27,250 nucleotides of DNA from Patescibacteria group bacterium (GCA_004321885.1 SCQK01000009.1:1-27250), one strand, 5' to 3'. Shown: positions 8,742 to 26,118, counted from the first letter of the stretch. Notes: a model not told the origin generated them from the letters alone. Program-made: numbers and translations.

Positions 8742-9893
8742 ATGTACCCAGCACGGTTAATTTTAAACACCGGCCAAGAATTTCTCGGCCTTTCACCCGC
8801 CTGGCAAAAAGGCGACTTTTACGGTTTACCCTCACACCAAAAATTTTGGTGTGAGGGCGAGGTTGTTTTTACGACCGGCATGACCGGCTATGTGGAAACT
8901 CTCACCGATCCTTCGTATGCCGGACAAATTATCGTCTTCACCTATCCGCTCATCGGCAACTACGCCGTGCCGCCGGCCAAATTCTGGGAATCGGAAAAAA
9001 TCCACGCGGCCGGAGTGGTGGTAGGCGAGGCGTGCCAGTGGCCTGATACCCCCTCCTCACCTCCCTCCCGAAACAAGTTCGGGACAGGCTCTTATAAAGG
9101 GGGAGGGACTTTGGCCGGATGGCTAAGAGAACAAAAGGTGCCTTTACTCACCGGGGTGGATACTCGCCTGCTTACCAAAACACTACGCGAGAAGGGTGCC
9201 ACGCCCGGAGCGATTACGTCTTACCCCTACCTAACCTCCCCCTTAAAAAGGGGGAGGAACAGGAGGGGGTATAATTTCTTTGACCCGAACGAAACAGATC
9301 TGGTGGCGCTGGTTTCTCCCAAAAGACCGACCACTTACGGCAAGGGGAAAAAGAGAATCATCGCCGTTGATTGCGGGATGAAAAAAAATCTGCTCCGCTC
9401 ACTCTTAAAATTACCGCTGACTATAAAAATCGTGCCGTACGACTACGATTATAACAAAGAAAAATTTGACGGCGTGTTTATCTCCAATGGCCCGGGCGAC
9501 CCGGAACGTTGCGGCCGAACGATAGAAATTCTGCGCCGCGCCATGAAAAAGAAAAAACCGATTTTCGGCGTCTGTCTGGGCAACCAGCTGTTAGCACTGG
9601 CGGCCGGAGCCAAAACCTACAAACTGCCCTTTGGCCACCGCGGACAAAATCAACCCTGCCAAGACAGCGCCACTGGCCGTTGTTATATCACCAGCCAAAA
9701 CCACGGCTACGCCGTGAACCCGGCCACCCTGCCGCCGGACTGGCGCGTGAGTTTCAAAAACTTAAACGACGATTCAGTGGAAGGCATCGGCCACAAATCA
9801 TTGCCGTTTTTCGCCGTGCAATTTCATCCCGAAGCGGCGCCCGGCCCCGCAGACACGCAGTGGCTTTTTGAAAAATTTTATGAAACTTTATAA
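8742..9893 (+). CDS. carA: carbamoyl-phosphate synthase small (glutaminase) subunit
   Basis: 'VVFTTGMTGYVETLTDPSYAGQIIVFTYPLIGNY', 'PIFGVCLGNQLLALAAGAKTYKLPFGHRGQNQP' (catalytic Cys), 'FAVQFHPEA'. Two in-frame family B element insertions. Confidence 0.9.
   Translation: MYPARLILNTGQEFLGLSPAWQKGDFYGLPSHQKFWCEGEVVFTTGMTGYVETLTDPSYAGQIIVFTYPLIGNYAVPPAKFWESEKIHAAGVVVGEACQWPDTPSSPPSRNKFGTGSYKGGGTLAGWLREQKVPLLTGVDTRLLTKTLREKGATPGAITSYPYLTSPLKRGRNRRGYNFFDPNETDLVALVSPKRPTTYGKGKKRIIAVDCGMKKNLLRSLLKLPLTIKIVPYDYDYNKEKFDGVFISNGPGDPERCGRTIEILRRAMKKKKPIFGVCLGNQLLALAAGAKTYKLPFGHRGQNQPCQDSATGRCYITSQNHGYAVNPATLPPDWRVSFKNLNDDSVEGIGHKSLPFFAVQFHPEAAPGPADTQWLFEKFYETL
9049..9108 (+). repeat. family B element (compound) in-frame in carA
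   Basis: 'cccctcctcacctccctcccgaaacaagttcgggacaggctcttataaagggggaggg' encodes 'PSSPPSRNKFGTGSYKGGG'. Contains inner hairpin TCCCGAA-acaag-TTCGGGA. Confidence 0.6.
9235..9272 (+). repeat. family B element in-frame in carA
   Basis: 'cctccccc-ttaaaaa-gggggagg-aacaggagggggtat' encodes 'SPLKRGRNRRGY'. Confidence 0.65.
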
Positions 9894-12800
9894 AGTTATA
9901 ATTCTCGGTTCCGGAGGATTGCAAATCGGCCAGGCCGGCGAGTTTGATTATTCGGGCTCCCAGGCCATCAAGGCCCTGAAAGAAGAAGGCATCAAAACCG
10001 TGCTGGTAAACCCCAACATCGCCACTGTTCAAACCGACCCAAACATGGCTGACGCGCTCTATCTTCAGCCGCTCAATTTTCAAACACTTAAAAAAATTAT
10101 CGCCAAAGAAAAACCGGACGGCATTTTGCTCGGCTTTGGCGGACAAACCGCGCTCAATCTGGGTTTGGAACTGGATGAAAAAGCCGTACTCCAAAAATAC
10201 GGCATGGCCGTGCTGGGTAGCGATACGCAAACAATACGAACAGCCGAAGACAGAAATTTATTCAAAATCGCGCTGGCGAAAATCGGAGTGAAGACTCCGA
10301 AAAGTTTTACCGCGCGCGACGTGAATGAAGCGCTGGCCGCGGGAAAACAAATCAGCTACCCCTTGATGATTCGCAGCGGCTTCTCTTTGGGCGGACTTGG
10401 TTCCGGAAAAATCGCCGACGCGCGGGAACTGAAACAACGCGCAGGCGAAGCGCTCTCCGGCGCCCCGCAAATCCTGGTGGAAGAATACCTGGGCGGCTGG
10501 AAAGAAGTGGAATACGAAGTGGTGCGCGACAGAAAAGACAACACCATTATTGTCTGCAACATGGAAAACATGGACCCGATGGGCATCCATACCGGTGAGA
10601 GCATCGTGGTGGCGCCTTCGCAGACCTTGAACAACGAACAGTATCATCGCCTGCGCGAGCTGTCCATCAAAATCGCCCGCCACCTGAAAATCATCGGCGA
10701 ATGCAACGTGCAATTCGCCTTGCACCCGAAAACCGGCGACTATCGCGTGATAGAACTCAACCCGCGCCTGTCGCGTTCATCGGCTCTGGCTTCCAAAGCC
10801 ACGGGCTATCCCCTGGCCTACATCGCGGCCAAGCTGGCCATCGGCAAACTTTTGCCTGAACTCAAAAATTCAGTCACCAAAAAAACCTCGGCCTTTTTTG
10901 AACCGGCCTTGGATTATCTGACAATAAAAATTCCGCGCTGGGACACAAACAAACTGCGCTCGGCCGAACGCTCCATCGGCTCGGAGATGAAAAGCGTGGG
11001 CGAAGTGATGGCCATTGGACGCTCGTTTCCCGAAGCATTGCAAAAAGCCGTGCGTATGCTGAATATCGGCGCCGACGGGCTAAGCGATTATCCGTTTCCC
11101 ATCGCCGAACCGAAAAAAGAAATGGAGAACGCCACCGACCGACGTTTGTTCGCGCTTTACCAATTTTTTAAAAAAGGCGGCGGCGTAAAAGAAGCCGGGC
11201 AACTTACGAGTATAAACGAATGGTTTCTGGCGCACATCAAAAACATCGCGGCGCTGGAAAAAACAATCAAAAATAAACGACTAACGCCAGCCCTGCTTTT
11301 ACAAGCCAAGCAATTCGGCTTTAGCGACGTCGGTCTGGCAAAATTAAAAAATACTGACGAGAAAAAAATCAGGCGCCTGCGCAAAAAAAACAAAATCCTG
11401 CCGTGCTTTAAACAAATAGACACCCTGGCCGGCGAATATCCGGCCGAGACGAATTATTTATACGCCACCTACCACGGCGCCGGACACGATATCGCCGCTT
11501 TGGACAAAAAACCGATCATCGTCCTCGGCTCTGGTCCGTACGCCATCGGTTCGTCGGTGGAATTTGACTGGTGCGCCGTGAACACGGCCCGCGCCCTGCG
11601 CGCCTTGGACAAAAAAACAATAATGCTCAACTCCAATCCGGAAACAGTCTCCACTGACTACGACGAATCCGACCGTTTGTATTTTGAAGAGCTGACTTTG
11701 GAGCGCGTGGCTGACATCGCTGATTTTGAAGGCGGCGCGAAGGCGTCTTTTGAATCTACACCCGGCATTGTTGTTTCGGTCGGCGGACAAATCGCCAATA
11801 AAATCGCTCTGCCGCTTTTTGAAATGGGTTATAAAATTTTAGGCACCCCGCCCGTGGCCATAGACCAGGCCGAAGACAGACAAAAATTTTCCTCACTCTT
11901 GAATAAATTAAAAATAGACCAGCCGGAATGGATTGAGTCGGGTAATTTGAGTAAAGCCAAGGCTTTCGCCAAAAATTTCGGGTATCCGGTCCTGGTGCGG
12001 CCGTCATACGTGCTCTCTGGCGCGGCCATGAACGTGTGCCCGAACGAAGATGAACTGACAAACTATCTACGTTCGGCTTCGGCCGTTTCTCCCGACCATC
12101 CGGTGGTTATTTCCAAATTTATCACCAATGCCAAAGAGTTAGACATAGACGGAGTGGCCGACAAGGGAAAAATTATAATAGAAGCGATTTGCGAACACGT
12201 GGAAAACGCGGGCGTGCACTCGGGCGACGCCACCCTGGTCTTGCCCCCGCAAAAACTTTATTTGGAAACGATTCGCCGCGCCAAAAACATCGCTCGCGCC
12301 ATCGCCAAATCACTCAAAATCACCGGGCCCTTTAACATCCAGTTCATTGCCAAGGATAACGCGCTCAAAGTGATAGAGTGCAACTTGCGCGCTTCCCGCT
12401 CTTTTCCTTTCGTATCCAAAGTGACCGGACATAATTTCATAGAACTGGCCACCAAGGCCATGCTGGGCGGTGTTGGAGTTCCTCCCCCTCTTAGGGGGAG
12501 GATAAAGGAGGGGGTATTTGAAACCCTGGAGCTCAACCACGTCGGCGTGAAGTCGCCGCAATTTTCTTACCACCGACTGAAAGGAGCCGACCCGGTGGCG
12601 CAAGTGGAAATGGCTTCCACCGGAGAGGTGGCCTGTATCGGCGGCGATTATTTGCGCGCCTTTTATTCTTCCTGGCTGGCCACGGGCAAAAATATCAGCC
12701 GCCGCCGGGCGCTTGTCACCATTGCCGATGAATGCAAACAAAAATTCTTGCCATTAGTGAAAAAAATGGACAAACAGGGCTGGGAAATATATACTACTGC

Positions 12801-13110
12801 CGGCACCCACGACTTTTTGTCGCGCCACGGAGTGGCCAGCAACTTTGTTTACAAAATCAGCGAGCAAAACAAGCCGAACGTGGAGGCAACGATTTCAGAA
12901 AAGCAAGTTGACGTAATCATTGTCATTCCGAGCGAAGCGAGGAATCTCTGTTTATCAAACGACAGCGACGGCTACAAAATTCGCCGGCTGGCCACGGACC
13001 GCCACATCCCACTTATCACCAACTCGCAAACCGCTATTTTGCTCTTGCGCTGTCTCACCGAACTTGACGCCAATAAAATGCCGATAAAATCGTGGCAAGA
13101 ATATTTTTAA
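9868..13110 (+). CDS. carB: carbamoyl-phosphate synthase large subunit
   Basis: 1080 aa. Two ATP-grasp halves ('[20 protein letters not shown]', '[20 protein letters not shown]') and a C-terminal MGS-like domain. Overlaps the carA 3' end by 26 nt. Confidence 0.95.
12481..12517 (+). repeat. family B element in-frame in carB
   Basis: 'cctccccc-tctta-gggggagg-ataaaggagggggtat' encodes '[13 protein letters not shown]'. Confidence 0.7.
12921..12946 (+). repeat. family A short hairpin element in-frame in carB
   Basis: 'tgtcattccgagcgaagcgaggaatc' encodes 'VIPSEARNL' in the MGS-like domain. Confidence 0.6.
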
Positions 13111-13191
13111 TGTCATTGCGAGGAGCGGAGCGACGAAGCAATCCCATACAATTAAGGGGATTGCCACGGCCCTGCGGGCCTCGCAATGACA
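13111..13191 (+). repeat. family A full-length palindromic element filling the carB-pyrB intergenic space
   Basis: Begins immediately after the carB TAA. Termini 'tgtcattgcgagg...cctcgcaatgaca' are 13-bp perfect inverted repeats. Inner hairpin 'gcaatccc...gggattgc'. Confidence 0.75.
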
Positions 13192-13199
13192 ATACAATT

Positions 13200-14120
13200 A
13201 TGCCAAACACACTCAAAGGCAGGGACATAATTTCCATCGCGGAACTTTCCAAGCCGGAAATTCTGCTGGTGCTAAAAAACGCGCAAGAATTAAAAAAACA
13301 CCCGCGCCCGAAACTGCTGGAAGGGCTGGTGATGGGCAGTTGTTTTTTTGAACCCAGCACGCGCACGCGCTTGTCGTTTGAAACAGCCATGCAGAAGTTG
13401 GGCGGACGGGTAATCGGCTTTGCCGACCCGGGCGTGACTTCGGCCAAGAAAGGCGAGTCGCTGTACGACGCCATAAAAATCATCGGCCAATACGTGGATG
13501 TCATCGCCATGCGCCATCCGTTGGAGGGAGCGGCGCGACGCGCGGCCGAGGCCACGGACAAACCAATCATCAACGGCGGCGACGGAGCCAACCAGCACCC
13601 CACCCAAACCCTGCTGGACTTGTTCACTATTCAAGAATGCCAGAAAAAATTAAGCAACCTTCATATCGCCATGGTCGGCGACCTGAAATATGGCCGCACC
13701 GTGCACTCGCTGGCCCAGGCGCTTACCCATTTTGGCGCCCGCCTGTATTTCGTGGCGCCCGACAGCTTGCAGATGCCCGCGTATATTTGCGATGAATTAA
13801 AAACCAAAGGCGTCAAATTCTCCATGCACAAAAAAATGGAAGAGGTAATCGGCAAAGTTGATATTTTTTACATGACCCGCATCCAGGGCGAACGTTTTGC
13901 CGACCCGATGGAGTACGAAAAAGTAAAAAACAGTTTCGTGCTCAAGGCCGACATGCTAAAAAACGCCAAACCAAACCTGAAAATCTTGCACCCCTTGCCG
14001 CGCGTGAACGAAATTGAAACAGCCATAGACAAAACAAAATTCGCCTACTATTTCCAGCAAGCGGAAAACGGGCTCTATGCCCGCCAGGCCCTGCTGGCGA
14101 TGGTGTTGGGAAAAATTTAA
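13200..14120 (+). CDS. pyrB: aspartate carbamoyltransferase catalytic subunit
   Basis: '[11 protein letters not shown]', 'HPTQTLLDL' and 'LHPLPR' motifs. Start taken at 'MPNTLKGRD' (ATG 13200), just after the element. The ORF-track 13092 start reads through the palindrome. Confidence 0.9.
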
Positions 14121-14123
14121 TAA

Positions 14124-14208
14124 TGTCATTGCGAGGCCCAAGGGGCCGAAGCAATCTCAGACAAGTAAGGGATTGCCACGTCGGCCTGCAGGCCTCCTCG
14201 CAATGACA
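14124..14208 (+). repeat. family A full-length palindromic element filling the pyrB-pyrI intergenic space
   Basis: 'tgtcattgcgagg...cctcctcgcaatgaca'. Same architecture as 13111-13191, with a different centre. Confidence 0.75.
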
Positions 14209-14216
14209 AAAATTTT

Positions 14217-14681
14217 ATGAAAGAAAAAAAACTTTTGGTCAACGCCATAAAAAACGGCACGGTGATAGACCACATCACCGCCGGTAGCGCGCTCAAAATC
14301 ATCCGCATCCTCAATCTGGCCAGCCACGAAAAAGTCGTGACGGTCGGGCTGAACTTGCCCAGCAAATCCATGGGGCGCAAGGACTTAATCAAAGTAGCCG
14401 AGCGCGAACTTTCACCCGATGAAGTAAGCAGCGTGGCCATTCTGGCGCCGCAAGCCAGCATCAACATCGTCAAAAATTACGAAATAGTTAAAAAATTTAA
14501 AATAAAACTACCGGAAAAAATTGAGAGCGTAGTTGTTTGCCCCAACCCGAAATGCATTACCAACCACGAGCCCATGGCCAGCGTGTTTTTTATTCTGCCC
14601 AACGGCAAACACATTAAACTGCGTTGTAAATATTGCGAAAAAGTTTTTGGTCACGATGATATCCGTGAATATAGAGTATAA
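14217..14681 (+). CDS. pyrI: aspartate carbamoyltransferase regulatory subunit
   Basis: 'AIKNGTVIDHI', 'GLNLPSKSMGRKDLIKV', zinc domain 'CPNPKCITNHEP...LRCKYCEKVF'. Confidence 0.9.
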   Translation: MKEKKLLVNAIKNGTVIDHITAGSALKIIRILNLASHEKVVTVGLNLPSKSMGRKDLIKVAERELSPDEVSSVAILAPQASINIVKNYEIVKKFKIKLPEKIESVVVCPNPKCITNHEPMASVFFILPNGKHIKLRCKYCEKVFGHDDIREYRV

Positions 14682-14690
14682 AAACACCAT

Positions 14691-15857
14691 ATGAGCCGGC
14701 TCATAACTTTACCCGCTTTGATTGACCCGCACGTGCATTTTCGTACCCCGGGTTCCGAGCACAAAGAGGATTGGATTTGCGGAGCGCGCGCCGCCTTCGC
14801 CGGCGGATACACCACGGTGATTGACATGCCGAACAACAACCCGCCGGCGATTGATGAAGAGTCATTGAATAACAAAATCAAGCTCGTGGAACAACAACTG
14901 TCATTCCTGCGAAAGCAGGAAGGGAGCCCTTCGGGCTCGGAATTCATTTCTGTCCACCCATATTTTTATCTCGGGGTTACTCCCCTCCCCCTTGATAAGG
15001 GGGAGGCAGGGTGGGGGTCGGCGGTAGCCCTCAAAATGTTCATGGGTTCCAGCACCGGCAGTTTGCTGGTGGACAAATACGAAGACCAGGAAAAAATATT
15101 CGCCAAAGCCGCTGAACTTGATTTGCTGGTGGCAGTGCACGCAGAAGATGATGAAACAATAAAAAATAATCAACTGTCATTCCAGCAAAAGCTGGAATCC
15201 ATCGCCAATCCAGTCGCTCTTCACTCGCAAATCCGCTCGCGTGAGGCGGCGATAAAAGCCGTGTCGCAAGCGATTGAACTGGCGGAAAAGACCGGCGCGC
15301 GATTATATATCTGCCATATTAGCACAAAGGAAGAAGCTGAATTGGTTAAATCGGCTAAAGAGCGCGGAGCCAAAATTTATGCCGAAGTCACACCGCATCA
15401 TTTGTTTCTGAACGAAAGCGCGTATGAAACATTGGAGACAAAAGCGCAAATGAATCCGCCTCTGCGCACGGCCGCGGACCAAGCGGCGCTCTGGCAGGCG
15501 ATAAACGACGGAGTAATAGACACCATCGGCACCGACCACGCTCCGCATACTTTGGAAGAAAAAAATCAACCATACCCCAAATCGCCTTCGGGCGTGCCCG
15601 GCATTGAGACATGTTTGCCGCTATTGCTCAACGCGTACAATCAGGGTAAAATCAGTTTAGAGAAAATAGTGGAATTATGCCGGACAAATCCGCAAAAAAT
15701 ATTCCGTTTGCCTGATAACAGTGACGAGGTGATTGTGGATTTGGATTTGGAAAAAGAGGTAAAAAATGAGAATTTAAAAACTAAATGCGGCTGGTCGCCC
15801 TTTGCTGGGTGGAATCTAAAGGGGTGGCCGATAAAAACGATAATTATGAAAAAGTAA
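14691..15857 (+). CDS. pyrC: dihydroorotase
   Basis: 'LIDPHVHFRTPG' metal-binding motif, 'GTDHAPH'. Contains three in-frame element insertions. The stop codon lies inside the left terminal repeat of a MITE-like element. Confidence 0.85.
   Translation: MSRLITLPALIDPHVHFRTPGSEHKEDWICGARAAFAGGYTTVIDMPNNNPPAIDEESLNNKIKLVEQQLSFLRKQEGSPSGSEFISVHPYFYLGVTPLPLDKGEAGWGSAVALKMFMGSSTGSLLVDKYEDQEKIFAKAAELDLLVAVHAEDDETIKNNQLSFQQKLESIANPVALHSQIRSREAAIKAVSQAIELAEKTGARLYICHISTKEEAELVKSAKERGAKIYAEVTPHHLFLNESAYETLETKAQMNPPLRTAADQAALWQAINDGVIDTIGTDHAPHTLEEKNQPYPKSPSGVPGIETCLPLLLNAYNQGKISLEKIVELCRTNPQKIFRLPDNSDEVIVDLDLEKEVKNENLKTKCGWSPFAGWNLKGWPIKTIIMKK
14899..14921 (+). repeat. family A short hairpin in-frame in pyrC
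   Basis: 'tgtcattcctgcgaaagcaggaa' is TTCCTGC-GAAA-GCAGGAA. Encodes 'SFLRKQE'. Followed by a small hairpin 'gagccc-ttc-gggctc'. Confidence 0.7.
14982..15018 (+). repeat. family B element in-frame in pyrC
   Basis: 'cccctccccc-ttgataa-gggggagg-cagggtgggggt' encodes 'PLPLDKGEAGWG'. Confidence 0.7.
15175..15198 (+). repeat. family A short hairpin in-frame in pyrC
   Basis: 'tgtcattccagcaaaagctggaat' is ATTCCAGC-AAAA-GCTGGAAT. Encodes 'LSFQQKLE'. Confidence 0.7.
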
Positions 15858-16014
15858 GAAATTTGAACGGTGGTCTCGCTCGGATAGTTACGGACTCGCT
15901 GTCGCTTTTTGACCCAATGAGCATAATCGCATGGATCAAAATGCCTTCGGCACCGCTCCAACTCGTCTCGTAACTGCACCTCGCTCGCCCAATGTTCAAA
16001 TTTCTTACTTTTTC
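15848..16014 (+). mobile_element. MITE-like element: 21-bp perfect terminal inverted repeats flanking about 125 bp
   Basis: Left 'gaaaaagtaagaaatttgaac' (15848-15868) is the exact reverse complement of right 'gttcaaatttcttactttttc' (15994-16014). The interior carries direct 'CTCGCTCG' repeats. The pyrC TAA is within the left repeat. Confidence 0.5.
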
Positions 16015-16028
16015 TCACATCCATTTTT

Positions 16029-16982
16029 ATGAAACATCTAATCTCCCTAAAGGAACAAACAAAAGAAGACCTGCTGGAAATTTTGGATTTAGCAAAAAAA
16101 GTTAAAGCCACATACAAGGCCGGTGAGACGATGGAGCCATTAAAAAACAAAACCCTGCTCATGCTTTTTCAAAAAAGCTCCACGCGCACGCGCCTGTCGT
16201 TTGAGGCCGGCATAACCGAACTGGGCGGACACGCCATTTTTCTGGACAGCCGCGCCACGCAATTTTCGCTCACTGATTTCGGCGATGAAATAAAAGCCGT
16301 AATGCGCTTTGGCGACATCCTGATGTTTCGGGCCATGAAAGCGGCGGACGTGGAAAAGGCGGCGGGCTTCAATCAGATTCCGGTGATAGACGGTTGCAGT
16401 GAAAAATATCACCCGTGCCAGGCCTTGGGAGACATTTTGACAATGAGTGAGCATGCCAATGGACTGGAAAACGTGAAAAAAATCACTTGGCTGGGAATTG
16501 AAAACAACGTCTCTAACACCCTGACGCTGGCCGGCGCCAAACTGGGAATTGAAGTGACCATCGCCGCGCCCGAAGCCAACCCGGCCAGCGTGGACGCGGA
16601 GTTAAACGCCCAGGCCTCTGCCGTCGGCAAAGTGACACGCACTTTGAATTTGGCCGAAGCGCTGGCTGGCGCGAATTTCATCCACACCGACACCTGGATG
16701 GATATGGAATTTTTTTCCGACGGAAAAGTGAAGCCGCAATTTGAAGCCGAATACGAACGGCGCAAACGGGTGTTCACGCCTTTTCAACTAAACGCGGGCT
16801 TAATAAACACCCACGCCCCGCAAGCGAAAATTATGCACTGCATGCCGTGTCATGTGGGCTATGAAATTTCACGCGACGCCATAGACCATCCCAATTCAAT
16901 AATTTTTGACCAGGCGGAAAATCGCAAACACATCCAAAAAGCGATTATTCTTTGGCTACTTGGTATTCCCTCCCCTTTATAA
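16029..16982 (+). CDS. ornithine-carbamoyltransferase-family transcarbamylase paralog (substrate uncertain)
   Basis: 'STRTRLSFE', 'HPCQALGDILT', 'HCMPC' (OTC HCLP-type) and a C-terminal 'SIIFDQAENRKH' closely like OTCase. The ornithine-binding 'DxxxSMG' is 'DTWMDME'. Confidence 0.75.
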   Translation: MKHLISLKEQTKEDLLEILDLAKKVKATYKAGETMEPLKNKTLLMLFQKSSTRTRLSFEAGITELGGHAIFLDSRATQFSLTDFGDEIKAVMRFGDILMFRAMKAADVEKAAGFNQIPVIDGCSEKYHPCQALGDILTMSEHANGLENVKKITWLGIENNVSNTLTLAGAKLGIEVTIAAPEANPASVDAELNAQASAVGKVTRTLNLAEALAGANFIHTDTWMDMEFFSDGKVKPQFEAEYERRKRVFTPFQLNAGLINTHAPQAKIMHCMPCHVGYEISRDAIDHPNSIIFDQAENRKHIQKAIILWLLGIPSPL

Positions 16983-17004
16983 GGGGAGGGTTAGGGTGGG
17001 GTAT
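16968..17004 (+). repeat. family B element spanning the OTC-paralog stop and the pyrD RBS
   Basis: 'ccctcccc-tttataa-ggggaggg-ttagggtggggtat'. The TAA stop of the upstream gene is inside the hairpin loop. GGGTGGGG lies 5 nt before the pyrD ATG. Confidence 0.7.
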
Positions 17005-17005
17005 T

Positions 17006-17917
17006 ATGCTCACCACAACTTTCCTCAACAAAACTTTCGCCAATCCCATCGTGCTCGCCTCGGGCATTCTTGGCGTGTCGGCCGCCAGTTTGGCGCGGGC
17101 GGTGAAAGATGGCTGCGGCGGAGTGACGGCCAAGTCGGTCTCGCTTGAACCGCGCTCCGGTCATCCCAATCCCACCACCGCCGGCATGGAGCATTTTTTC
17201 ATCAACGCGGTTGGACTTTCCAACCCGGGCGTGGACGCGGCGGTGGAAGAACTGAAAAAATTCAAAGAATTATCCGTCTCACCGCTCATCGGCAGTATTT
17301 TCGCGGGCACGCCTGAGGAGTTCGCCGTCGTGACGGAAAAAATTTGCGCGGCGCCAATTGATTTTCTGGAAATCAATGTTTCCTGCCCGAACGTAAGCAA
17401 AGAATTCGGCAAACCGTTTGCTTACTCCACCGAAGCCGTGGAAATTATCACCAAAAAAGTAAAAGCCAAAGCGACTGTGCCGATAATAATAAAACTTTCT
17501 CCCAATGCCTGGAACATAGACGAAATCGCGCTGGCGGCCGAAACCGCCGGCGCCGACGCCCTTTGCGCCGTCAACACCATCAGCGGCATGATAATTGACT
17601 GCCACAGCCGCAAACCGATATTGCACAACAAACAGGGCGGGGTTTCGGGTCCGGCGCTGCTGCCTATCGCGCTAAAATGCGTGTATGACATTTACAAAAA
17701 AGTGAAAATTCCCATCATTGGCACAGGCGGCATTTGTTCTGGCGAAGACGCGCTGGCCATGATTATGGCCGGAGCGGCTTTGTTGGGTGTTGGCTCGGCC
17801 GTGTATTTCCGCGGGAGCGAGGTGTTTGAAAAAATTTGCGAGGAGATGGAGAAAATAATGGAAGAGGAAGGGATAAAAAATTTGGAGGAAATCCGCGGCG
17901 CGGCGCACTCATCATGA
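17006..17917 (+). CDS. pyrD: dihydroorotate dehydrogenase (class 1B) catalytic subunit
   Basis: 'NPIVLASGILG', 'GLSNPGVDA', 'NVSCPN', 'IIGTGGICSGEDA'. Start taken at 'MLTTTF' after the element-supplied RBS. Confidence 0.85.
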   Translation: MLTTTFLNKTFANPIVLASGILGVSAASLARAVKDGCGGVTAKSVSLEPRSGHPNPTTAGMEHFFINAVGLSNPGVDAAVEELKKFKELSVSPLIGSIFAGTPEEFAVVTEKICAAPIDFLEINVSCPNVSKEFGKPFAYSTEAVEIITKKVKAKATVPIIIKLSPNAWNIDEIALAAETAGADALCAVNTISGMIIDCHSRKPILHNKQGGVSGPALLPIALKCVYDIYKKVKIPIIGTGGICSGEDALAMIMAGAALLGVGSAVYFRGSEVFEKICEEMEKIMEEEGIKNLEEIRGAAHSS

Positions 17918-17921
17918 ATGT

Positions 17922-18067
17922 CCCCCTCCCCTATTTGCGAAAAGAGTGAGAGAAAAAGCAAACTTGTTGCTTTTTCCGAACGAATGAGCAAATATCCGCA
18001 GATATTAGGGGAGGGATAAACCCCGTTAGAGGTCTGCAGACCTCTAACGGGGTAAAGGGTGGGGTTA
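17922..18067 (+). repeat. compound family B region in the pyrD-pyrK intergenic space
   Basis: 'cccctcccc' (17922) pairs with 'ggggaggg' (18008) across a 70-nt insert that contains AAAAAGCAA-acttg-TTGCTTTTT. This is followed by a perfect hairpin 'ccccgttagaggtctgcagacctctaacgggg' (18021-18052). A 'taaagggtggggtt' SD-like tail precedes the pyrK ATG. Confidence 0.6.
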
Positions 18068-18072
18068 AACGT

Positions 18073-18945
18073 ATGGATAGTACAAAATTCTTAAAAATAG
18101 AAAAAATAACAGACGAAACCCCGTTCGTCAAAACATTCTATTTTAATCATCGCCTAAACAGCAAGCCCGGGCAATTTGTGATGCTCTGGCTACCGGGAAT
18201 TGACCAAAAACCGTTTTCCATCGGCTGGGAAGATGAAAACGGCTTTGCCCTGACTGTGTTCAATCGCGGACCGACGACGAACAAACTGTTTGAAATGAAA
18301 GCCGGCGAACGAGTGGGCATTAGCGGGCCCTACGGTACTTCTTTTTCCGTGCGCCCAAACACGCGCTATATCATGGTCGCCGGCGGCTATGGCGCCGCGC
18401 CTCTTTCTTTTTTGGCCAAGCAGCTATCTGTCATTGCGAGGAGCGTAGCGACGAAGCAATCCCAATCTACAAAAATTGATTTCCTCCTCGGCGCCCGCTC
18501 GGCCGAACACGTGCTATTTGAAGACCGTCTGTCAAAATTACCCAACACCAAAATCCACATCGCCACCGACGACGGCAGTAAGGGACATAAGGGATTTGTG
18601 ACCGACCTGCTTTCATCTGTCATTCCTGCGAAAGCAGGAATCCACGACAACTCACTGGATGCCCGTTTTCACGGGCATGACATATTCGTCTGCACTTGCG
18701 GCCCCGAACTGATGGAAAAAAAAGTTTTGGACGCTTGCAACGTCGCCGGCGTGGAATGCGAAATCAGCATTGAACGCTACATGAAATGCGGCGTGGGCGT
18801 GTGCGGACAATGCGCCGTGGACGACCTGGGCCTGCATATGTGCAAAGAAGGGCCGGTGGTAAGCGGCGCGCTCGCCAGTCAAATTAAAGAGTTCGGCGTC
18901 TACCATCGCGACAAAAGCGGGAAAAAAGTATACTTCGAAAATTAA
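18073..18945 (+). CDS. pyrK: dihydroorotate dehydrogenase electron-transfer (FAD/2Fe-2S) subunit
   Basis: FAD/NAD-binding fold and C-terminal 'CGVGVCGQCAV' cluster motif. Two in-frame family A insertions. Confidence 0.85.
   Translation: MDSTKFLKIEKITDETPFVKTFYFNHRLNSKPGQFVMLWLPGIDQKPFSIGWEDENGFALTVFNRGPTTNKLFEMKAGERVGISGPYGTSFSVRPNTRYIMVAGGYGAAPLSFLAKQLSVIARSVATKQSQSTKIDFLLGARSAEHVLFEDRLSKLPNTKIHIATDDGSKGHKGFVTDLLSSVIPAKAGIHDNSLDARFHGHDIFVCTCGPELMEKKVLDACNVAGVECEISIERYMKCGVGVCGQCAVDDLGLHMCKEGPVVSGALASQIKEFGVYHRDKSGKKVYFEN
18429..18463 (+). repeat. family A half-element in-frame in pyrK
   Basis: 'tgtcattgcgaggagcgtagcgacgaagcaatccc' matches the left 35 nt of the 13111 element with one mismatch. 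Encodes 'SVIARSVATKQSQ'. Confidence 0.75.
18618..18642 (+). repeat. family A short hairpin in-frame in pyrK
   Basis: 'tgtcattcctgcgaaagcaggaatc' matches the pyrC copy at 14899. Encodes 'SVIPAKAGIH'. Confidence 0.75.
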
Positions 18946-18961
18946 GTCCAAAGCCAATTAT

Positions 18962-19006
18962 AAAAAAAGAAAAAGCTCTCATTCCGTGCGATGACGAAAC
19001 GAGAGC
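18962..19006 (-). terminator. rho-independent terminator for the - strand GC-rich gene
   Basis: - strand: GCTCTCGTTTCG-loop-CGGAATGAGAGC (imperfect 11-bp stem) followed by TTTTTCTTTTTTT. Confidence 0.5.
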
Positions 19007-19082
19007 GAAACGAACCGAGGGACCAAGTGACCCAAGCCCTTCCGATTTGGCGAAAGGGCTGAGGCACCAAGGATCCCAGGGC

Positions 19083-19730
19083 CTACTTGCCGCGAGGAAG
19101 GAGATAGGAGGCGCCGAAGCCGTAGACAACCCAGCGGACGTCCAGCACCCAGCGAGCGCCGACCCAGGAGAGACAGGCCACGTAGAGGCCGCCACGCCGG
19201 CCGCGCAAAAGCGTGCCCGGCAGGACGATGATCTTGTCCTGCATCTCCTTCGGGATCTCGGCCTGGCACTCCAGCATACGCTTGCCATCCACCAGGCCGT
19301 AGTTGGCCTTGAGGACGACGGCGCGGGCGCGCATGACCTCGCCGTTGACATAGCCCGGGTCATCGGGCTCGAGGAAGGACACATACTCCAAGTCCTTCAC
19401 CTCGAACTGCGACGGGGCCACATCCTCCACCACCTCCCACTTGCGCTTCTTGCCTGCCTCGTCCTCGTACTCGGGGATGAGGTCGGCGGCGAGCAACTCG
19501 GACGGGAGCTGGTCGCGCTTGATCGATGCCGCCACGCTTTCGCCGTTTTCCTCGCCGATCGGCTCCAGCTTCAGCCGGAGCTTGCCGGCGCGAAACAGCT
19601 CCACGTTCTGCGCGCCCGTCTCACATCCGCCGAACTCCGCCCACAGCTTGAGGATCATGGCCCAGATCTGCTTCCCTGTCAGACCCTCCAGCACGGCCTC
19701 CAGTGTCTTCCCTTCCACTCTCGAACTCAT
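19083..19730 (-). CDS. hypothetical protein in a GC-rich (about 62% GC) inserted segment
   Basis: ATG with AAGGAG 7 nt upstream. Balanced E/K/D/L composition, unlike the Ala/Arg/Leu-rich overlapping frames. Terminator downstream. Interrupts pyrK...pyrE. Confidence 0.5.
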   Translation of the reverse strand: MSSRVEGKTLEAVLEGLTGKQIWAMILKLWAEFGGCETGAQNVELFRAGKLRLKLEPIGEENGESVAASIKRDQLPSELLAADLIPEYEDEAGKKRKWEVVEDVAPSQFEVKDLEYVSFLEPDDPGYVNGEVMRARAVVLKANYGLVDGKRMLECQAEIPKEMQDKIIVLPGTLLRGRRGGLYVACLSWVGARWVLDVRWVVYGFGASYLLPRGK

Positions 19731-19895
19731 GGCTGTTCTCCTTTCCGGCGCCTCGCCAGAATGGCAATTTGCCCCGCCCCGGGGCTCGGGTTTTTATGCT
19801 AAAAATAACAAAGAGCTAACAGCGATTTATATCACAACATTACTGCTTCTGTCAAGCTAAACACCGTCACAACCGCCATATCCTTTCACAAACCC

Positions 19896-19928
19896 TTGCG
19901 CGATTATCTGCGCGATTCTTGCGCGATT
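19896..19928 (+). promoter_or_regulatory. three direct repeats of TGCGCGATT (11-12 bp spacing) just upstream of the fic -10
   Basis: 'ttgcgcgatt' 19896, 'ctgcgcgatt' 19908, 'ttgcgcgatt' 19919. Operator- or iteron-like. Confidence 0.5.
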
Positions 19929-19938
19929 TAATTTTTTA

Positions 19939-19947
19939 TGGTATGAT
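19939..19947 (+). promoter_or_regulatory. extended -10 promoter TGGTATGAT for fic-pyrE-pyrF
   Basis: TGnTATGAT 29 nt upstream of the fic ATG. Same box type as 'TGGTATAAT' at 6712-6720. Confidence 0.45.
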
Positions 19948-19975
19948 ATTGGCAAGGAATTCTTCGGCCTAAACT

Positions 19976-21031
19976 ATGTTTGAACCAAAGTATAAAATCA
20001 CCAATCAAATCATCCAGATGCTCACCGCCATCGCCGAGGCCAAGGCGATTATTGAACGCGCGCGCCTTTTGCCGAAGCACGAACTCAAACTGCGACGCCA
20101 GGCCCTTCTCCGCATGACCCACAGCTCCACGGCCATAGAAGGCAACCGGCTGAATATGCGCGAAGTGGAGGCCGTGGCGGCGCGCAAAAAAGTGGATGCC
20201 CCGGAACGCGAAATCTATGAAGTAAAAAACTACCTGGAAGCGATTCGCTACATTGAAAAAGTCGTAAAAAACAACCAGCCAATCACCGAAAAGATTATCT
20301 TACAAATTCACCGGCTTGTAACCGACAAAACTTTGCCGGCACATTCCTCGGGGCAATATCGCAAAGGGCCGGTGTATGTGGTGCGGCGCTGGAGAGACGG
20401 CCGCCAGGAAGTTTTGTATACCGCGGCTGGCGCCGGACAAGTCCCCGGTCTTATGGCCGGCTTAACGCGCTGGCTCGCTGAAAGTGAAACGCAAAATATC
20501 AGCCCAGTCATCGTGGCCGGTATCGCGCACCAGGAAATCGCGGCTATTCACCCCTTTGCCGACGGTAATGGCCGCACCGCGCGCGCCCTGGCCACGCTTA
20601 TCCTTTACCGACGCGGCTACGACTTTCGCCGCCTTTTCGCCCTGGAAGATTTCTACAACGAAGACAGGCCGTCGTATTATCGCGCCATCAACGTCGGCAA
20701 AAACTACCAACAGCGCCGCGTTGATTTTACGCCATGGCTGGAATATTTTGTGCGCGGATTTAAGGAAGAAATTATTAAAGTGAAAAATAACGTGCTCACA
20801 CTATCGGCCAAAAAGGTTGACAAAAAAATTGAAGCGCAAATTTATCTTGATAAAGACCAGCTCAAAATTTTGGAGTTTGCCGACCAGATGGGAAAAATAT
20901 CCGTGGGCGACGTGGTGGATATTTTGAGTTGTCCCAAACGCACCGCCCAATCGTATCTACAAAAATTAAAAAAACTGAAAATTATCCGGCAAGTCGGCAA
21001 AGGGCCGGCCAGCGGATATATAATAGCGTGA
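19976..21031 (+). CDS. fic: Fic/Doc family protein (class II, N-terminal inhibitory helix) with C-terminal winged-helix domain
   Basis: Fic motif 'HPFADGNGRTARAL'. Inhibitory motif 'STAIEG' ([ST]xxxE[GN]) near the N-terminus. C-terminal HTH-like 'ISVGDVVDILSCPKRTAQSYLQKL'. Stop is 6 nt before the pyrE ATG. Confidence 0.85.
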   Translation: MFEPKYKITNQIIQMLTAIAEAKAIIERARLLPKHELKLRRQALLRMTHSSTAIEGNRLNMREVEAVAARKKVDAPEREIYEVKNYLEAIRYIEKVVKNNQPITEKIILQIHRLVTDKTLPAHSSGQYRKGPVYVVRRWRDGRQEVLYTAAGAGQVPGLMAGLTRWLAESETQNISPVIVAGIAHQEIAAIHPFADGNGRTARALATLILYRRGYDFRRLFALEDFYNEDRPSYYRAINVGKNYQQRRVDFTPWLEYFVRGFKEEIIKVKNNVLTLSAKKVDKKIEAQIYLDKDQLKILEFADQMGKISVGDVVDILSCPKRTAQSYLQKLKKLKIIRQVGKGPASGYIIA

Positions 21032-21037
21032 TTTTTT

Positions 21038-21634
21038 ATGCTCAAGAAACTAATCATCAAACTCCACGAAATCAACGCCGTCAAATTCGGGGAATTCAAA
21101 TTAAAAAGCGGAATAATGTCGCCGATATACATTGACTTGCGGGTGACGATTTCTTATCCCGAAGTTTTGAAAATGGTGGCCGAGGCCATGTGGGAAAAAG
21201 TCAAAGACGTTAATTTTGATTTGATTTGCGGAGTGCCTTACACCGCCCTGCCCATTGCCACGGCCATTTCTCTGGCGCATGACAAACCAATGATCATGCG
21301 GCGCAAGGAAGTAAAGGACTATGGCACGAAAAAAGCGATTGAAGGCGCGTTTGTCGCCGGACAAAAAGTATTGGTGGTGGAGGATTTGGTGACGAGCGGC
21401 AGTAGTGTGTTTGAAACGATTGAACCTTTACAACACGAAGGATTGACGGTGAGCGATATTGTGGTGTTGGTGGACCGCGAACAGGGCGGCCGCAAGCATC
21501 TGGCGGAAAAAGGGTTTAATTTACATTCGGTTTTGACGATTTCGGAAATGTTAGCTGTTTTGGTAGAAGCCAGTAAATTGGACAACGCGATGGCGGATAA
21601 GGTGAAAGATTTTATAAACGCGAATCAAGTATAA
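21038..21634 (+). CDS. pyrE: orotate phosphoribosyltransferase
   Basis: 'KFGEFKLKSGIMSPIYIDLR' and PRPP motif 'VLVVEDLVTSGSS'. Confidence 0.9.
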   Translation: MLKKLIIKLHEINAVKFGEFKLKSGIMSPIYIDLRVTISYPEVLKMVAEAMWEKVKDVNFDLICGVPYTALPIATAISLAHDKPMIMRRKEVKDYGTKKAIEGAFVAGQKVLVVEDLVTSGSSVFETIEPLQHEGLTVSDIVVLVDREQGGRKHLAEKGFNLHSVLTISEMLAVLVEASKLDNAMADKVKDFINANQV

Positions 21635-21640
21635 CAAATA

Positions 21641-21754
21641 CCCCTCCCCCACCCTCCCCTTATAAAGGGGAGGGTGCAATTTTCCTCCCCCTTTATAAGG
21701 GGGAGGCTCGCCACCACACCAAATGCTTTGGTGTGGTGGCGAGGAGGGGGTAAA
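21641..21754 (+). repeat. two tandem family B hairpins plus a 14-bp perfect hairpin and SD tail in the pyrE-pyrF spacer
   Basis: 'ccctcccc-ttataaa-ggggaggg', 'cctccccc-tttataa-gggggagg', 'ctcgccaccacacc-aaatgcttt-ggtgtggtggcgag' (21707-21743), then 'gagggggtaaaaatt' before ATG. Confidence 0.7.
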
Positions 21755-21758
21755 AATT

Positions 21759-22520
21759 ATGAAATACAAACAACGCGCCGAGATGTGCGCCAATCCGACC
21801 GCCAAAAAATTACTTGAATTGATGAATGAGAAACAAACAAACCTGGCGCTGGCCGCGGACGTGACGACCAAAAAAGAACTGCTGGAAATCGCCGACACGT
21901 TGGGGCCGGAAATCTGCGTGCTTAAAACGCACATTGATATTATTGGGGATTTTGATTCTGATTTAATCATCCAGCTTCAGCGCTTATCAGAAAAACACAA
22001 TTTTCTTTTTTTTGAAGACCGCAAATTCGCTGATATTGGAAACACGGTCATGCACCAATACCAAGACGGCATTTATCACATCGCGGACTGGGCGCATATC
22101 GTGAACGCGCACACTGTTCCGGGTCCTGGAATTATTGATGGATTAAAAGAAGTGGGTCTGCCCAAAGGGCGCGGGTTGCTATTACTGGCGGAAATGAGCT
22201 CCAAAGGCGCTTTGGCGAGCGGCGCCTACACCGAAAAAACGATAAAAATGGCGCAGGCCAACAAGGATTTTGTCGTCGGCTTTATCACTATGCGCCAGCT
22301 AATTGACGACCCGTGTTTTATAAACTTCACGCCCGGGGTTCAGCTCGCCCAAGGAGCGGACGCGCTGGGCCAGCAATACAACACTCCGGAAAACGTCATC
22401 GCCAAACAAAAATCCGACATTATTATTGTCGGACGAGGCATTTACAAGGCCGCGGACCCGGTCGCCGAAGCGAAAAAATATCGCGAGGCCGGTTGGAAGG
22501 CCTACACTTCTATTATTTAA
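21759..22520 (+). CDS. pyrF: orotidine-5'-phosphate decarboxylase, eukaryote (URA3)-like type
   Basis: 'YKQRAE...[20 protein letters not shown]...[10 protein letters not shown]', '[16 protein letters not shown]', '[11 protein letters not shown]'. Long collinear similarity to fungal URA3 as I recall it. Start 'MKYKQRAE' after the element RBS. Confidence 0.85.
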
Positions 22521-24164: not shown

Positions 24165-24250
24165 ACCCCCTCCTCTGTCCTCCACCTAAAAGGGGGAGAA
24201 AAGTGACAGTGTTACCCCTCCCTCGCCCTCCCCTTATAAAGGGGAGGGAA
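24165..24250 (+). repeat. compound family B element in the nif3-hypothetical spacer
   Basis: 'cccccctcctctgtcctccacctaaaagggggag...cccctccctcgccctcccc-ttataaa-ggggaggg'. Confidence 0.6.
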
Positions 24251-25233: not shown

Positions 25234-25270
25234 CTCTCCCCTTTATAAGGGGAGAGACAGAGAGGGGTAA
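25234..25270 (+). repeat. family B element upstream of nif3
   Basis: 'ctctcccc-tttataa-ggggagag-acagagaggggtaat'. Confidence 0.65.
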
Positions 25271-25313
25271 TTTAAAAATTATAATGCTTCAATATTATGT
25301 CAAACCGACGGGC

Positions 25314-25342
25314 TTGTCAAACCGGTGCCGGCCTGATATACT
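25314..25342 (+). promoter_or_regulatory. sigma70-like promoter TTGTCA, 17 nt, TATACT
   Basis: -35 at 25314-25319 and -10 at 25337-25342. Drives the small acidic ORF or RNA ending at the 25533 terminator. Confidence 0.5.
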
Positions 25343-25391
25343 ACACCATACTTTTCCCGCACCACTGCGGGTGAAAAATATATCTCTCAAA

Positions 25392-25520
25392 TATGTTGGA
25401 GAATATAAACACATTCGAAGACGACGAAGAAAATTTGGATAGCGAAGAGGAGGAAGAGGTGGATGGCGTCCCGAAACCTGGCAGTGATGAGGATGCGGAT
25501 GACGACGAAGACAGCATGTA
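25392..25520 (+). CDS. small (42 aa) extremely acidic ORF 'MLENINTFEDDEENLDSEEEEEVDGVPKPGSDEDADDDEDSM'
   Basis: Promoter upstream and intrinsic terminator downstream. No clear SD, so it could instead be a small RNA. Confidence 0.3.
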
Positions 25521-25523
25521 ATT

Positions 25524-25559
25524 AAAAAGAATCCCCGCCTTGGGCGGGGTTCTTTTTTT
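25524..25559. terminator. bidirectional intrinsic terminator CCCCGCC-ttg-GGCGGGG flanked by A-tract and T-tract
   Basis: 'aaaaagaatccccgccttgggcggggttcttttttt'. Serves the convergent small ORF (+) and efp (-). Confidence 0.7.
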
Positions 25560-26118
25560 ACGCTCTGGTGGAGTATTCGCCCGTTTCGGTATTTACCAGA
25601 ATCTCTTCGCCTTCTTTTATGAATATCGGGGCCTGAATTTTTAATCCGTTTTCCAAAGTGATTTCTTTGGTGACGTTGCCCGAAGCGCTGTCGCCCTTGA
25701 CCGCCGGCGGCGCGTCAATCACCTTGTATTGAATCTTTTTCGGTATCTGCGCGGAAACCGGCCGGCCCTCGTACAGCCCCACGACCACGTCTATCCCTTC
25801 TTTCAGATACTTGGCCTCGTCGCCGAGCAAATCGTTGTTCATCTCTATCTGCTCATAGGTGCTCATGTTCATGAAAGCGAAATTGGCGCCGCTTTTGTAC
25901 AAATACTGCATAGAATGAAACTCCACCTCCACGATATCCACGCTTTCGCTGGTTTTGTAGGTTATTTCAATCACCTTGCCCGAGGCCAAACTTTTCATCC
26001 GCACGCGCACAAAAGCCGCGCCCTTGCCAGGGTTGACGTGCTGAAAATCCACCACGACAAACAAATCATTCTGGTGCCTGATGACTACCCCTTTTCTGAT
26101 TTCGCTGGTAGGGGCCAT
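25558..26118 (-). CDS. efp: translation elongation factor P
   Basis: 'VDFQHVNPGKGAAFVRVRMK' (modifiable Lys in the PGKG loop). Three OB/KOW-like domains. 186 aa. Confidence 0.9.
   Translation of the reverse strand: MAPTSEIRKGVVIRHQNDLFVVVDFQHVNPGKGAAFVRVRMKSLASGKVIEITYKTSESVDIVEVEFHSMQYLYKSGANFAFMNMSTYEQIEMNNDLLGDEAKYLKEGIDVVVGLYEGRPVSAQIPKKIQYKVIDAPPAVKGDSASGNVTKEITLENGLKIQAPIFIKEGEEILVNTETGEYSTRA

Follow-up and report, generated by a model that had tools for sequence, protein, structure and literature searches.

A Hyper-Acidic Small Protein Gene Found Near efp in Candidatus Magasanikbacteria and Its Comparison With Described Systems

Introduction

The described systems closest to the locus discussed here are bacterial metallothioneins, acidic nucleic-acid mimics and tails, MgtL-type leader peptides, dual-function small RNAs (sRNAs), Pup/UBact and the C-terminal tail of the ribosomal P-stalk. 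The locus lies in a 27,250-nucleotide (nt) stretch of DNA from a Patescibacteria group bacterium (GCA_004321885.1, SCQK01000009.1:1-27250; this whole stretch is referred to as the window), where a cassette at 25314-25559 carries a small open reading frame (sORF) of 42 codons for a hyper-acidic protein. It belongs to a family of 67 distinct acidic peptides of 33-83 residues, which were collected from 160 Magasanikbacteria loci. Judged on sequence, no described family matches it; the window peptide lacks defining features of metallothioneins and MgtL-like sORFs, and probably also those of acidic mimics and tails.

Bacterial metallothioneins (SmtA/BmtA type and MymT) are similar in their small size, and some members of the family contain Cys clusters. 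In addition, an ArsR- or Fur-family regulator adjoins some of the family loci, even in divergent orientation. In the metallothionein case, smtB lies divergent to smtA. Unlike metallothioneins, however, the window protein has neither Cys nor His, most of the family is free of both residues and contains ~46-50% Asp/Glu, and no Pfam or NCBIfam match was found. The ~8 or more Cys that define a metallothionein are missing from the window peptide, and clusters of 4-10 Cys are seen in seven relatives only.

Extreme negative charge, scattered hydrophobic residues and small size are also found in the C-terminal tail of the RNA polymerase delta subunit, region 1.1 of sigma70, T7 Ocr, ArdA, and Neisseria DMP12 and DMP19. 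Both the delta tail and region 1.1 belong to larger proteins, whereas the window protein is free-standing. Ocr is a folded charge array (PMC7064336), as are ArdA and the DMPs; in contrast, the window member is expected from its model to lack a fold, and its sequence is unrelated to any of these proteins.

MgtL-type acidic leader peptides are likewise encoded by a short ORF which is D/E-rich near the N-terminus, and in both cases translation is expected to be Mg2+-sensitive (bioRxiv 10.1101/2021.02.02.429294). However, what follows the window ORF is a terminator and then a convergent gene, so that it is not a leader; its length is also much greater, and conservation extends over the whole peptide. 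A leader peptide or attenuator was therefore rejected, as no co-directional gene lies downstream. Dual-function sRNAs (RNAIII/hld, SR1/SR1P and those with RsaE-type UCCC loops) share with the cassette a short stand-alone transcript which combines an sORF with a C-rich-loop hairpin. Unlike them, the cassette belongs to no Rfam family, its hairpin is missing in half of the family, and few Shine-Dalgarno (SD) sequences exist in the lineage.

Pup and UBact are small, acidic and intrinsically disordered, the last of which is predicted for the window member as well. The family nevertheless lacks a C-terminal GGQ/GGE or R[TS]G[EQ], its C-terminal residues being I, V, E, M or W, and Pup/UBact identity was rejected on these motifs. 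No ligase or proteasome genes were found among the neighbours of the sORF loci.

The C-terminal tail of the archaeal and eukaryotic ribosomal P-stalk reads ...EEDDDMGFGLFD. Peptides of subfamily D end in ...EEEEVEGFGLEKDV, an acidic run in others is followed by E-[LM]-E-G-F-[GH], and the gene adjoins translation genes. However, this likeness covers only 4-5 residues in a minority of members (GF[GH] in 17/67) and is degenerate in the window, where the motif is VDGVP. Bacteria use bL12 in place of P-stalk proteins.

An Independent Gene Under Purifying Selection

The original prediction described a self-contained cassette of promoter, ORF and terminator, and this was borne out, since all of the parts lie on the + strand at 25314-25559. 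Taken together, these signals indicate an independent monocistronic gene with its own promoter and terminator. The -35 hexamer TTGTCA (25314-25319), with an equivalent TTGACx in nearly all relatives, is followed after a 17-nt spacer by an extended -10 element, TGaTATACT (25334-25342; TG at 25334-25335 and TATACT at 25337-25342). This promoter has 10/12 consensus matches in addition to the extended -10 and ranks second among the sigma70-type matches over both strands of the whole 27-kb window; expression of the sORF is probably strong. Transcription would start near 25349-25350. The resulting leader of ~43 nt has no SD sequence and contains a hairpin at 25356-25371 (+), CCCGCA-[CCAC]-TGCGGG, with a 6-bp stem, a 4-nt C-rich loop and a 3' end 21 nt before the ATG; those 21 nt (25372-25392) form an A/U-rich spacer. 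The ORF (25393-25521, +) extends from the ATG at 25393 to a TAA at 25519-25521, and its product, MLENINTFEDDEENLDSEEEEEVDGVPKPGSDEDADDDEDSM, is exactly the peptide that had been quoted. It is closed by a bidirectional intrinsic terminator (25524-25559), which scores on both strands and is common to the sORF and the convergent efp. In this terminator a 7-bp all-GC stem (25533-25549), starting 11 nt after the sORF stop codon, is flanked by an A-run (25524-25528) and a T-run (25550-25559).

It had been left undecided whether the cassette encodes a small acidic protein or a non-coding RNA. The protein was found to be strongly favoured, on the basis of frame-keeping indels, third-position bias and low ratios of nonsynonymous to synonymous substitution (dN/dS). 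A comparison of ORF and RNA conservation across relatives, for which a pattern lacking codon periodicity had been named as counter-evidence, revealed that such periodicity is present. In frame-agnostic nucleotide alignments all internal gaps were multiples of three in 8/8 subgroups, and differences were concentrated at the third codon position (e.g., 10:6:34). By the Nei-Gojobori method, dN/dS lay at 0.05-0.45 across all pairs for which it could be computed and at 0.05-0.2 among the closest; values for close pairs include 0.09 (L042/L050), 0.07 (L036/L055) and 0.06 (L023/L033), where L numbers denote sampled loci. Purifying selection spans the whole peptide, including its C-terminal motifs. 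By these sequence measures the window ORF is a protein gene under purifying selection and not primarily an RNA. Relatives in GenBank are labelled 'hypothetical protein' (MEK7681052.1, MCX6781782.1, and KKP59551.1), and in an identical Logan contig, found via EF-P, a gene is called at this position. The missing SD sequence was rejected as an argument against translation, because most genes in the window also lack one and Parcubacteria often have no anti-SD motif (PMC9297842).

Recurrence and Gene Order in Relatives

EF-P relatives place the window in Candidatus Magasanikbacteria, within the Patescibacteria or Candidate Phyla Radiation (CPR). The sample was anchored on efp and consisted of 80 species-representative loci (470 kb) and 80 metagenome loci (230 kb). 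Acidic sORFs were defined as 30-100 residues with D+E of at least 36% in the species loci and at least 34% in the metagenome loci. The species loci contained 41 acidic sORFs, 40 of which lie within ~1.5 kb 3' of efp; the exception (L069) is found ~2.8 kb downstream of it. A further 37 were found in the metagenome loci. Many Magasanikbacteria third-party annotation (TPA) metagenome-assembled genomes (L002-L007 and many others) are titled 'uncultured Gammaproteobacteria bacterium', and one each Woesearchaeota (L078) and Udaeobacter (L016); these public-record titles look like mislabelled taxonomy.

The signals around the ORF recur with it. Among the 42 species-representative members examined, a sigma70-like promoter of at least 9.5 points was found in 40, typically TTGACx, 16-17 nt and TATAAT, often TG-extended, and the distance from the end of the -10 to the ATG is 28-77 nt, in most cases 43-57. 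In 39 of these members the stop codon is followed, after 0-11 nt, by a hairpin with a folding energy of -13 kcal/mol or below. Because it recurs in relatives in this way, the cassette arrangement is far beyond chance.

The anchor gene efp encodes EF-P (186 residues) on the - strand of the window (25558-26118), with its stop codon (25558-25560) inside the terminator T-run. In the 41 species loci the sORF is directly convergent with efp in 29 and separated from it by one gene in 12; in 8 loci it is co-directional with efp, with DUF1294 between them. Upstream, efp belongs to a conserved rpsF-ssb-rpsR-epmA-efp cluster, which has the sORF family at its 3' end; downstream, the gene content varies. 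The peptide subfamilies match the clades of the EF-P tree, and the sORF family is therefore vertically inherited. The connection to efp and epmA that the original prediction had drawn, through their role in difficult-to-translate motifs, thus holds as conserved gene order; a functional link does not follow, as the tie is one of synteny only and the peptide has no polyproline. Its prolines occur only as P-K-P, none of them consecutive, and the EF-P stall motifs (PPP, PPG etc.) are absent. Moreover, in E. coli it is the ABCF proteins EttA and YbiT, rather than EF-P, that relieve the destabilisation of ribosomes by N-terminal poly-acidic runs (PMC11162784; bioRxiv 10.1101/2021.02.02.429294). Adjacency to efp is therefore best read as inherited gene order.

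Other features of this neighbourhood were also observed. In 11 species (L005, L008, L009, L021, L025, L026, L028, L035, and others) a DUF7282 and cupredoxin/COX2-like copper-binding lipoprotein is encoded directly 3' of efp, and these species have no acidic sORF there; the efp-distal slot seems to be a variable region which often bears metal-related genes. Within the conserved cluster, bS6 (rpsF; L002-L081, about 500-1200) is long, at 150-230 residues, with a variable, often acidic or lysine-rich extension which in this lineage closes with a conserved ...KKLDEIL-G-NIIPGV. The bS18 of this lineage bears a CxxC...C..H zinc-type motif.

Peptide and Family Anatomy

The family was shown to consist of unnamed, fast-evolving hyper-acidic proteins. 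Asp and Glu make up 21 of the 42 residues of the window peptide, or 50%, so that the earlier figure of over 55% was too high. The peptide contains a single Lys, no Cys and no His, giving a net charge of ~-20; across the family, the median net charge is ~-22 and D+E ~46%. The N-terminus is short, non-acidic and bulky (M-L-x-N-x-N-F), beginning with M-[LMVFI] in 35/67 members, often as ML-N-NF. It is followed by an acidic run, which in the window starts at residue 9, and then by Asn with a hydrophobic residue (EENL, ENDAVW, NDNF). After a second acidic run comes an [LMV]-[DE]-G-[FV] motif, found as EGFHE or EGFGL in some subfamilies and as VDGVP in the window, and then more acidic residues. In 50/67 members these lead to a hydrophobic last residue (I, V, M, W, L, F or A), with ends such as ...DEEI, ...KNDW and ...EKDV; that of the window is ...EDSM. 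A single-sequence AlphaFold 2 model, a weak kind of evidence, gave no secondary structure (pLDDT 62.6, pTM 0.15), and the window peptide is predicted to be disordered.

Sequence searching proved useless for this family, which was found only through gene order. Ten members had no meaningful match in Pfam-A and NCBIfam at E values up to 1, and a profile search of the family against PDB gave no match, these searches together covering 10-31 members. Homologue searches with the window peptide and with a 31-member profile returned no scoring matches. A HMMER search with an 8-member profile against 1.84 billion representatives recovered only one query member and one near-identical Cys-rich relative. 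The exact window peptide is absent as a called gene and from the protein collection searched. Profile searches miss the family because its members are short, of low complexity and quickly diverging. Nothing relevant came from literature searches on acidic small proteins in CPR, on DUF1294 or on metallothioneins of Patescibacteria. For the DNA-mimic, chaperone-like or anti-sigma-like roles suggested originally, there was no homology match and no fold in the AlphaFold 2 model. Two further identities were rejected: a split acidic tail of SSB, because SSB keeps its own tip (...EEEIKVEDIPF), and an acyl carrier protein, because the 'LDS' of the window peptide is not conserved.

A Recurrent Hairpin in the Leader

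The small leader hairpin in the original prediction was found to be a conserved element which recurs in about half of the family. A hairpin of at least 5 bp ending 16-28 nt before the ATG is present in 31/67 unique leaders, compared with 3.1 ± 1.7 (maximum 8) in a mononucleotide-shuffle control. Its loops (CCAC, TCCC, CCCT, CCAT, CCC) contain 49% C, against 16% in the leaders overall. The stem sequence varies by lineage while the pairing is kept, 6/6 pairs being changed on both sides. In the gap-free set 98.7% of cells are paired; on a plain MAFFT alignment the figure is 79%, against 22-47% with the partner slid. Over both hairpin sets, 79-99% were paired and the slid-partner controls gave 13-47%.

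Two points count against a structured element. The hairpin leaders were picked by a hairpin finder, which biases the covariation counts upwards, and RNAalifold found no consensus structure on the plain MAFFT leader alignment, a null result attributed to loop-length differences which shift the register. A general genomic motif was rejected, as nowhere else in the intergenic DNA of the window was such a hairpin found. It is missing from subfamilies B and E, which keep the ORF, promoter and terminator, and therefore it is not essential to the cassette. The C-rich-loop hairpin has the pairing expected of a structured element and is a candidate for a new motif of the 5' untranslated region (UTR), which would probably stabilise the 5' end of the mRNA or tune initiation just upstream of the ribosome footprint.

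In the leaders of subfamily E (L011, L044, L052, L086, and L093) a conserved AAGCT...AGCTT abuts the ATG (...AAGCTTATG), e.g., at L011:3797-3815. This could be a start-codon-proximal hairpin or a conserved initiation context.

A Possible Cation-Binding Polyanion

The reading favoured for the protein is a tentative one, judged to fall short of an even chance. On this view the protein would be an abundant soluble polyanion, with carboxylates that capture Mg2+, Ca2+ or transition metals, and would serve as a cation buffer or chaperone. Its few conserved hydrophobic positions may be sites of docking to a partner, which could be the DUF1294 membrane protein that is often encoded next to it. Cation binding is favoured because thiolate-rich and carboxylate-rich versions interchange in one scaffold and because cation-homeostasis genes recur nearby. 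In the seven Cys-containing members (L015/L096, L073, L076, L135, L142, L154, and L161) the Cys, arranged as CxC, CC or CxxC, replace the central acidic run, as in the ...TCDCCDEECDCGDCEECGGE... of L073. These members keep the N- and C-terminal frame, promoter and hairpin of the family, and they are found at 3-4 or more separate places of the EF-P tree among Cys-free members, including beside the clade of the window. Regarding the neighbours, DUF1294, a small membrane protein, is encoded directly upstream of and co-directional with the sORF in 20/41 loci, and the two genes stay in this order whichever way they face relative to efp. Next to the sORF of L003, in divergent orientation, lies a Fur-family regulator with ZnuABC, which L071 has nearby. 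In four loci an ArsR regulator with glutaredoxin is adjacent, divergent in L038 and co-directional in L022, L042 and L050. A P-type cation ATPase is divergent at 130 bp in L154 and nearby in L034.

Several points weigh against cation binding. Cys and His are both absent from the window protein, and the Pfam, NCBIfam and PDB profile searches linked it to no metal-binding family. Only a minority of the neighbours are metal-related, in an efp-distal region which is generally variable, and metal genes also occur at loci lacking the sORF (those with the cupredoxin lipoprotein, L059 and L061 with ZnuABC, and L062 with an ATPase); therefore the association could be coincidental. No DUF1294 gene was found in the window genome within 27 kb. 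The aromatic and hydrophobic residues in their acidic context would fit a protein-binding short linear motif at least as well. Finally, poly-acidic N-termini are intrinsically hard to translate in E. coli (bioRxiv 10.1101/2021.02.02.429294), and thus a strong promoter is no guarantee of abundance.

Alternative Explanations

A polyanionic nucleic-acid mimic or decoy is possible though doubtful, and is considered nearly as likely as cation binding. In this case the disordered acidic chain would bind basic nucleic-acid-binding proteins (free ribosomal proteins, HU-like proteins, RNA polymerase or SSB-tail clients), acting as a chaperone or competitive inhibitor. It would be anchored through its acidic-hydrophobic motifs and its acidic, hydrophobic-ended C-terminus, as may be compared with the delta-subunit tail, sigma70 region 1.1 and phage DNA mimics. 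The net charge and lack of a predicted fold agree with this, as do the aromatic and hydrophobic residues conserved inside the acidic runs, and the 50/67 C-termini described above resemble the local SSB tip. Moreover, the gene ends a cluster for translation and replication, and its strong promoter fits a stoichiometric binder. However, the DNA mimics described so far have a fold, the searches revealed no homologue among DNA-mimic or anti-sigma families, and SSB retains its acidic tip, so that there is no split tail. Such a role would also leave the Cys-cluster variants and the cation-gene neighbours unexplained.

An unlikely extension of these ideas is that the cassette is a self-gating cation or ribosome-status device. 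With a D/E run from residue 9, completion of the peptide would depend on ribosome stability and hence on Mg2+, and the output of a cation-binding polyanion would be coupled automatically to the level of free cation. The C-rich-loop hairpin ~20 nt upstream of the ATG would then be an undescribed cis-regulatory RNA motif for initiation in CPR bacteria without SD sequences. In a more exotic variant, the E-G-F-G-L motifs would make the product a free P-stalk-like acidic peptide contacting translational GTPases.

Less probable still is that translation itself is the function, the ORF being a hard-to-translate sentinel whose early D/E run causes Mg2+-sensitive intrinsic ribosome destabilisation. Arrival of the ribosome at the stop codon would modulate terminator folding, mRNA fate or read-through antisense to efp. 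The early start of the run means that most of the peptide is made inside the exit tunnel, the stop codon abuts the terminator, and the bulky, non-acidic N-terminus retained by the family is of a kind reported to protect against destabilisation. There is precedent in E. coli, where sequences rich in DE/P at the N-terminus are the most prone to destabilisation and MgtL exploits it as a sensor (bioRxiv 10.1101/2021.02.02.429294; PMC11162784); low Mg2+ and deletion of bL31 worsen the effect (PMC11162784; bioRxiv 10.1101/2021.02.02.429294). On the other hand, no same-strand gene lies downstream, where the strong terminator and convergent efp come next, and the antisense logic is not conserved, since the 8 co-directional loci lie beyond DUF1294. 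Selection over the whole peptide, including its C-terminal motifs, would also be unexpected if the early run alone mattered.

At a somewhat lower level still stands a primarily regulatory RNA or dual-function sRNA, in which a ~210-nt transcript would act via the C-rich hairpin loop and the ORF would be secondary. The UCCC loops of some Gram-positive sRNAs pair with G-rich targets, and the unit is likewise short, monocistronic and terminator-bounded, with a conserved C-rich loop (CCAC, TCCC, CCCT, CCAT) on covarying stems. However, Rfam 15 gave 0 matches in the window at gathering score, the best permissive match reaching 18 bits against a gathering score of 55, and folding of the whole transcript was unremarkable (z = -1.37). 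Furthermore, the ORF is under purifying selection and, with its promoter and terminator, persists in subfamilies B and E where the hairpin is absent, and SD targets would be few, as most genes here are SD-less (PMC9297842).

A spurious ORF, that is, a GA-rich spacer open by chance between a stray promoter and the efp terminator, is suggested by the low-complexity sequence, the absence of the exact peptide from the protein collection and an antisense frame which is also open (a 58-residue Ser-rich ORF at 25341-25517, - strand), but is essentially refuted by the conservation of position, start codon, N-terminal motif, promoter and terminator in dozens of species, by indels which are all multiples of three with dN/dS well below 1, and by the rejection of the antisense ORF, which has no promoter, as a mechanical by-product of GAN codons (complement NTC).

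Significance

CPR/Patescibacteria have genomes of ~1 Mb, in which roughly every second gene lacks an assigned function. A microprotein that purifying selection has preserved throughout an order-level lineage, together with a near-consensus promoter, is probably abundant and of physiological importance, and its discovery via efp synteny offers a way to find such hidden genes. Tryptic proteomics would miss the peptide, because it contains one Lys which is followed by Pro. If the protein is a cation buffer or nucleic-acid mimic, ultra-small cells would have in it a novel and minimal means of ion or nucleoprotein homeostasis. With its hyper-acidic stretch close to the N-terminus, the peptide is also well suited to asking how the ribosomes of reduced bacteria deal with sequences that destabilise those of E. 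coli, and the covarying C-rich-loop hairpin provides a candidate 5'-UTR motif in a lineage largely without SD initiation.

Neighbouring Features of the Window

The gene on the other side of the cassette was labelled nif3 in the original prediction; the Pfam match behind this label is partial and marginal, at 24.6 bits against a cut-off of 23.4, and the gene is referred to here as nif3-like. Its divergent promoter (25292-25320, - strand) consists of TTGACA (25320-25315), 17 nt and TAATAT (25297-25292); it is found in this genome only, as relatives have other neighbours. Its -35 overlaps that of the sORF by 5 nt, forming the palindrome TTGTCAA at 25314-25320, and RNA polymerase would probably be subject to competition between the two promoters. 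The 17-nt spacer of the sORF promoter was observed to be unusually GC-rich and to hold the palindromes ACCGGT and GCCGGC, which could be a candidate operator. Neither the TTGTCAA overlap nor the spacer palindromes are conserved in relatives, whose neighbours differ.

A 17-nt palindrome, TCCCCTTTATAAGGGGA, was found at 7 sites with up to 3 mismatches, compared with 0.05 expected by chance (25237-25253, 9238-9254, 14987-15003, 16971-16987, 21655-21671, 21687-21704, and 24229-24245). Some are intergenic, among them the one in the 5' UTR of the nif3-like gene beside the cassette and the tandem pair at 21655/21687, and others lie inside pyrimidine-pathway genes. From its sequence and distribution it looks like a REP-like dispersed hairpin repeat.

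The window also contains a 1072-residue fusion of a SNF2-family helicase with a methyltransferase domain (51-3269), which could be part of a defence or restriction-like system. CPR bacteria are usually described as lacking nucleotide biosynthesis, and an apparently complete de novo pyrimidine cluster at 8742-22520 is therefore unexpected. It includes carA, carB, the catalytic and regulatory chains of aspartate transcarbamylase, a dihydroorotase-like amidohydrolase, a second gene of aspartate/ornithine transcarbamylase type, pyrD with a pyrK-like partner, a phosphoribosyltransferase and orotidine monophosphate decarboxylase, and a Fic-domain gene is inserted in it at 19976-21031.

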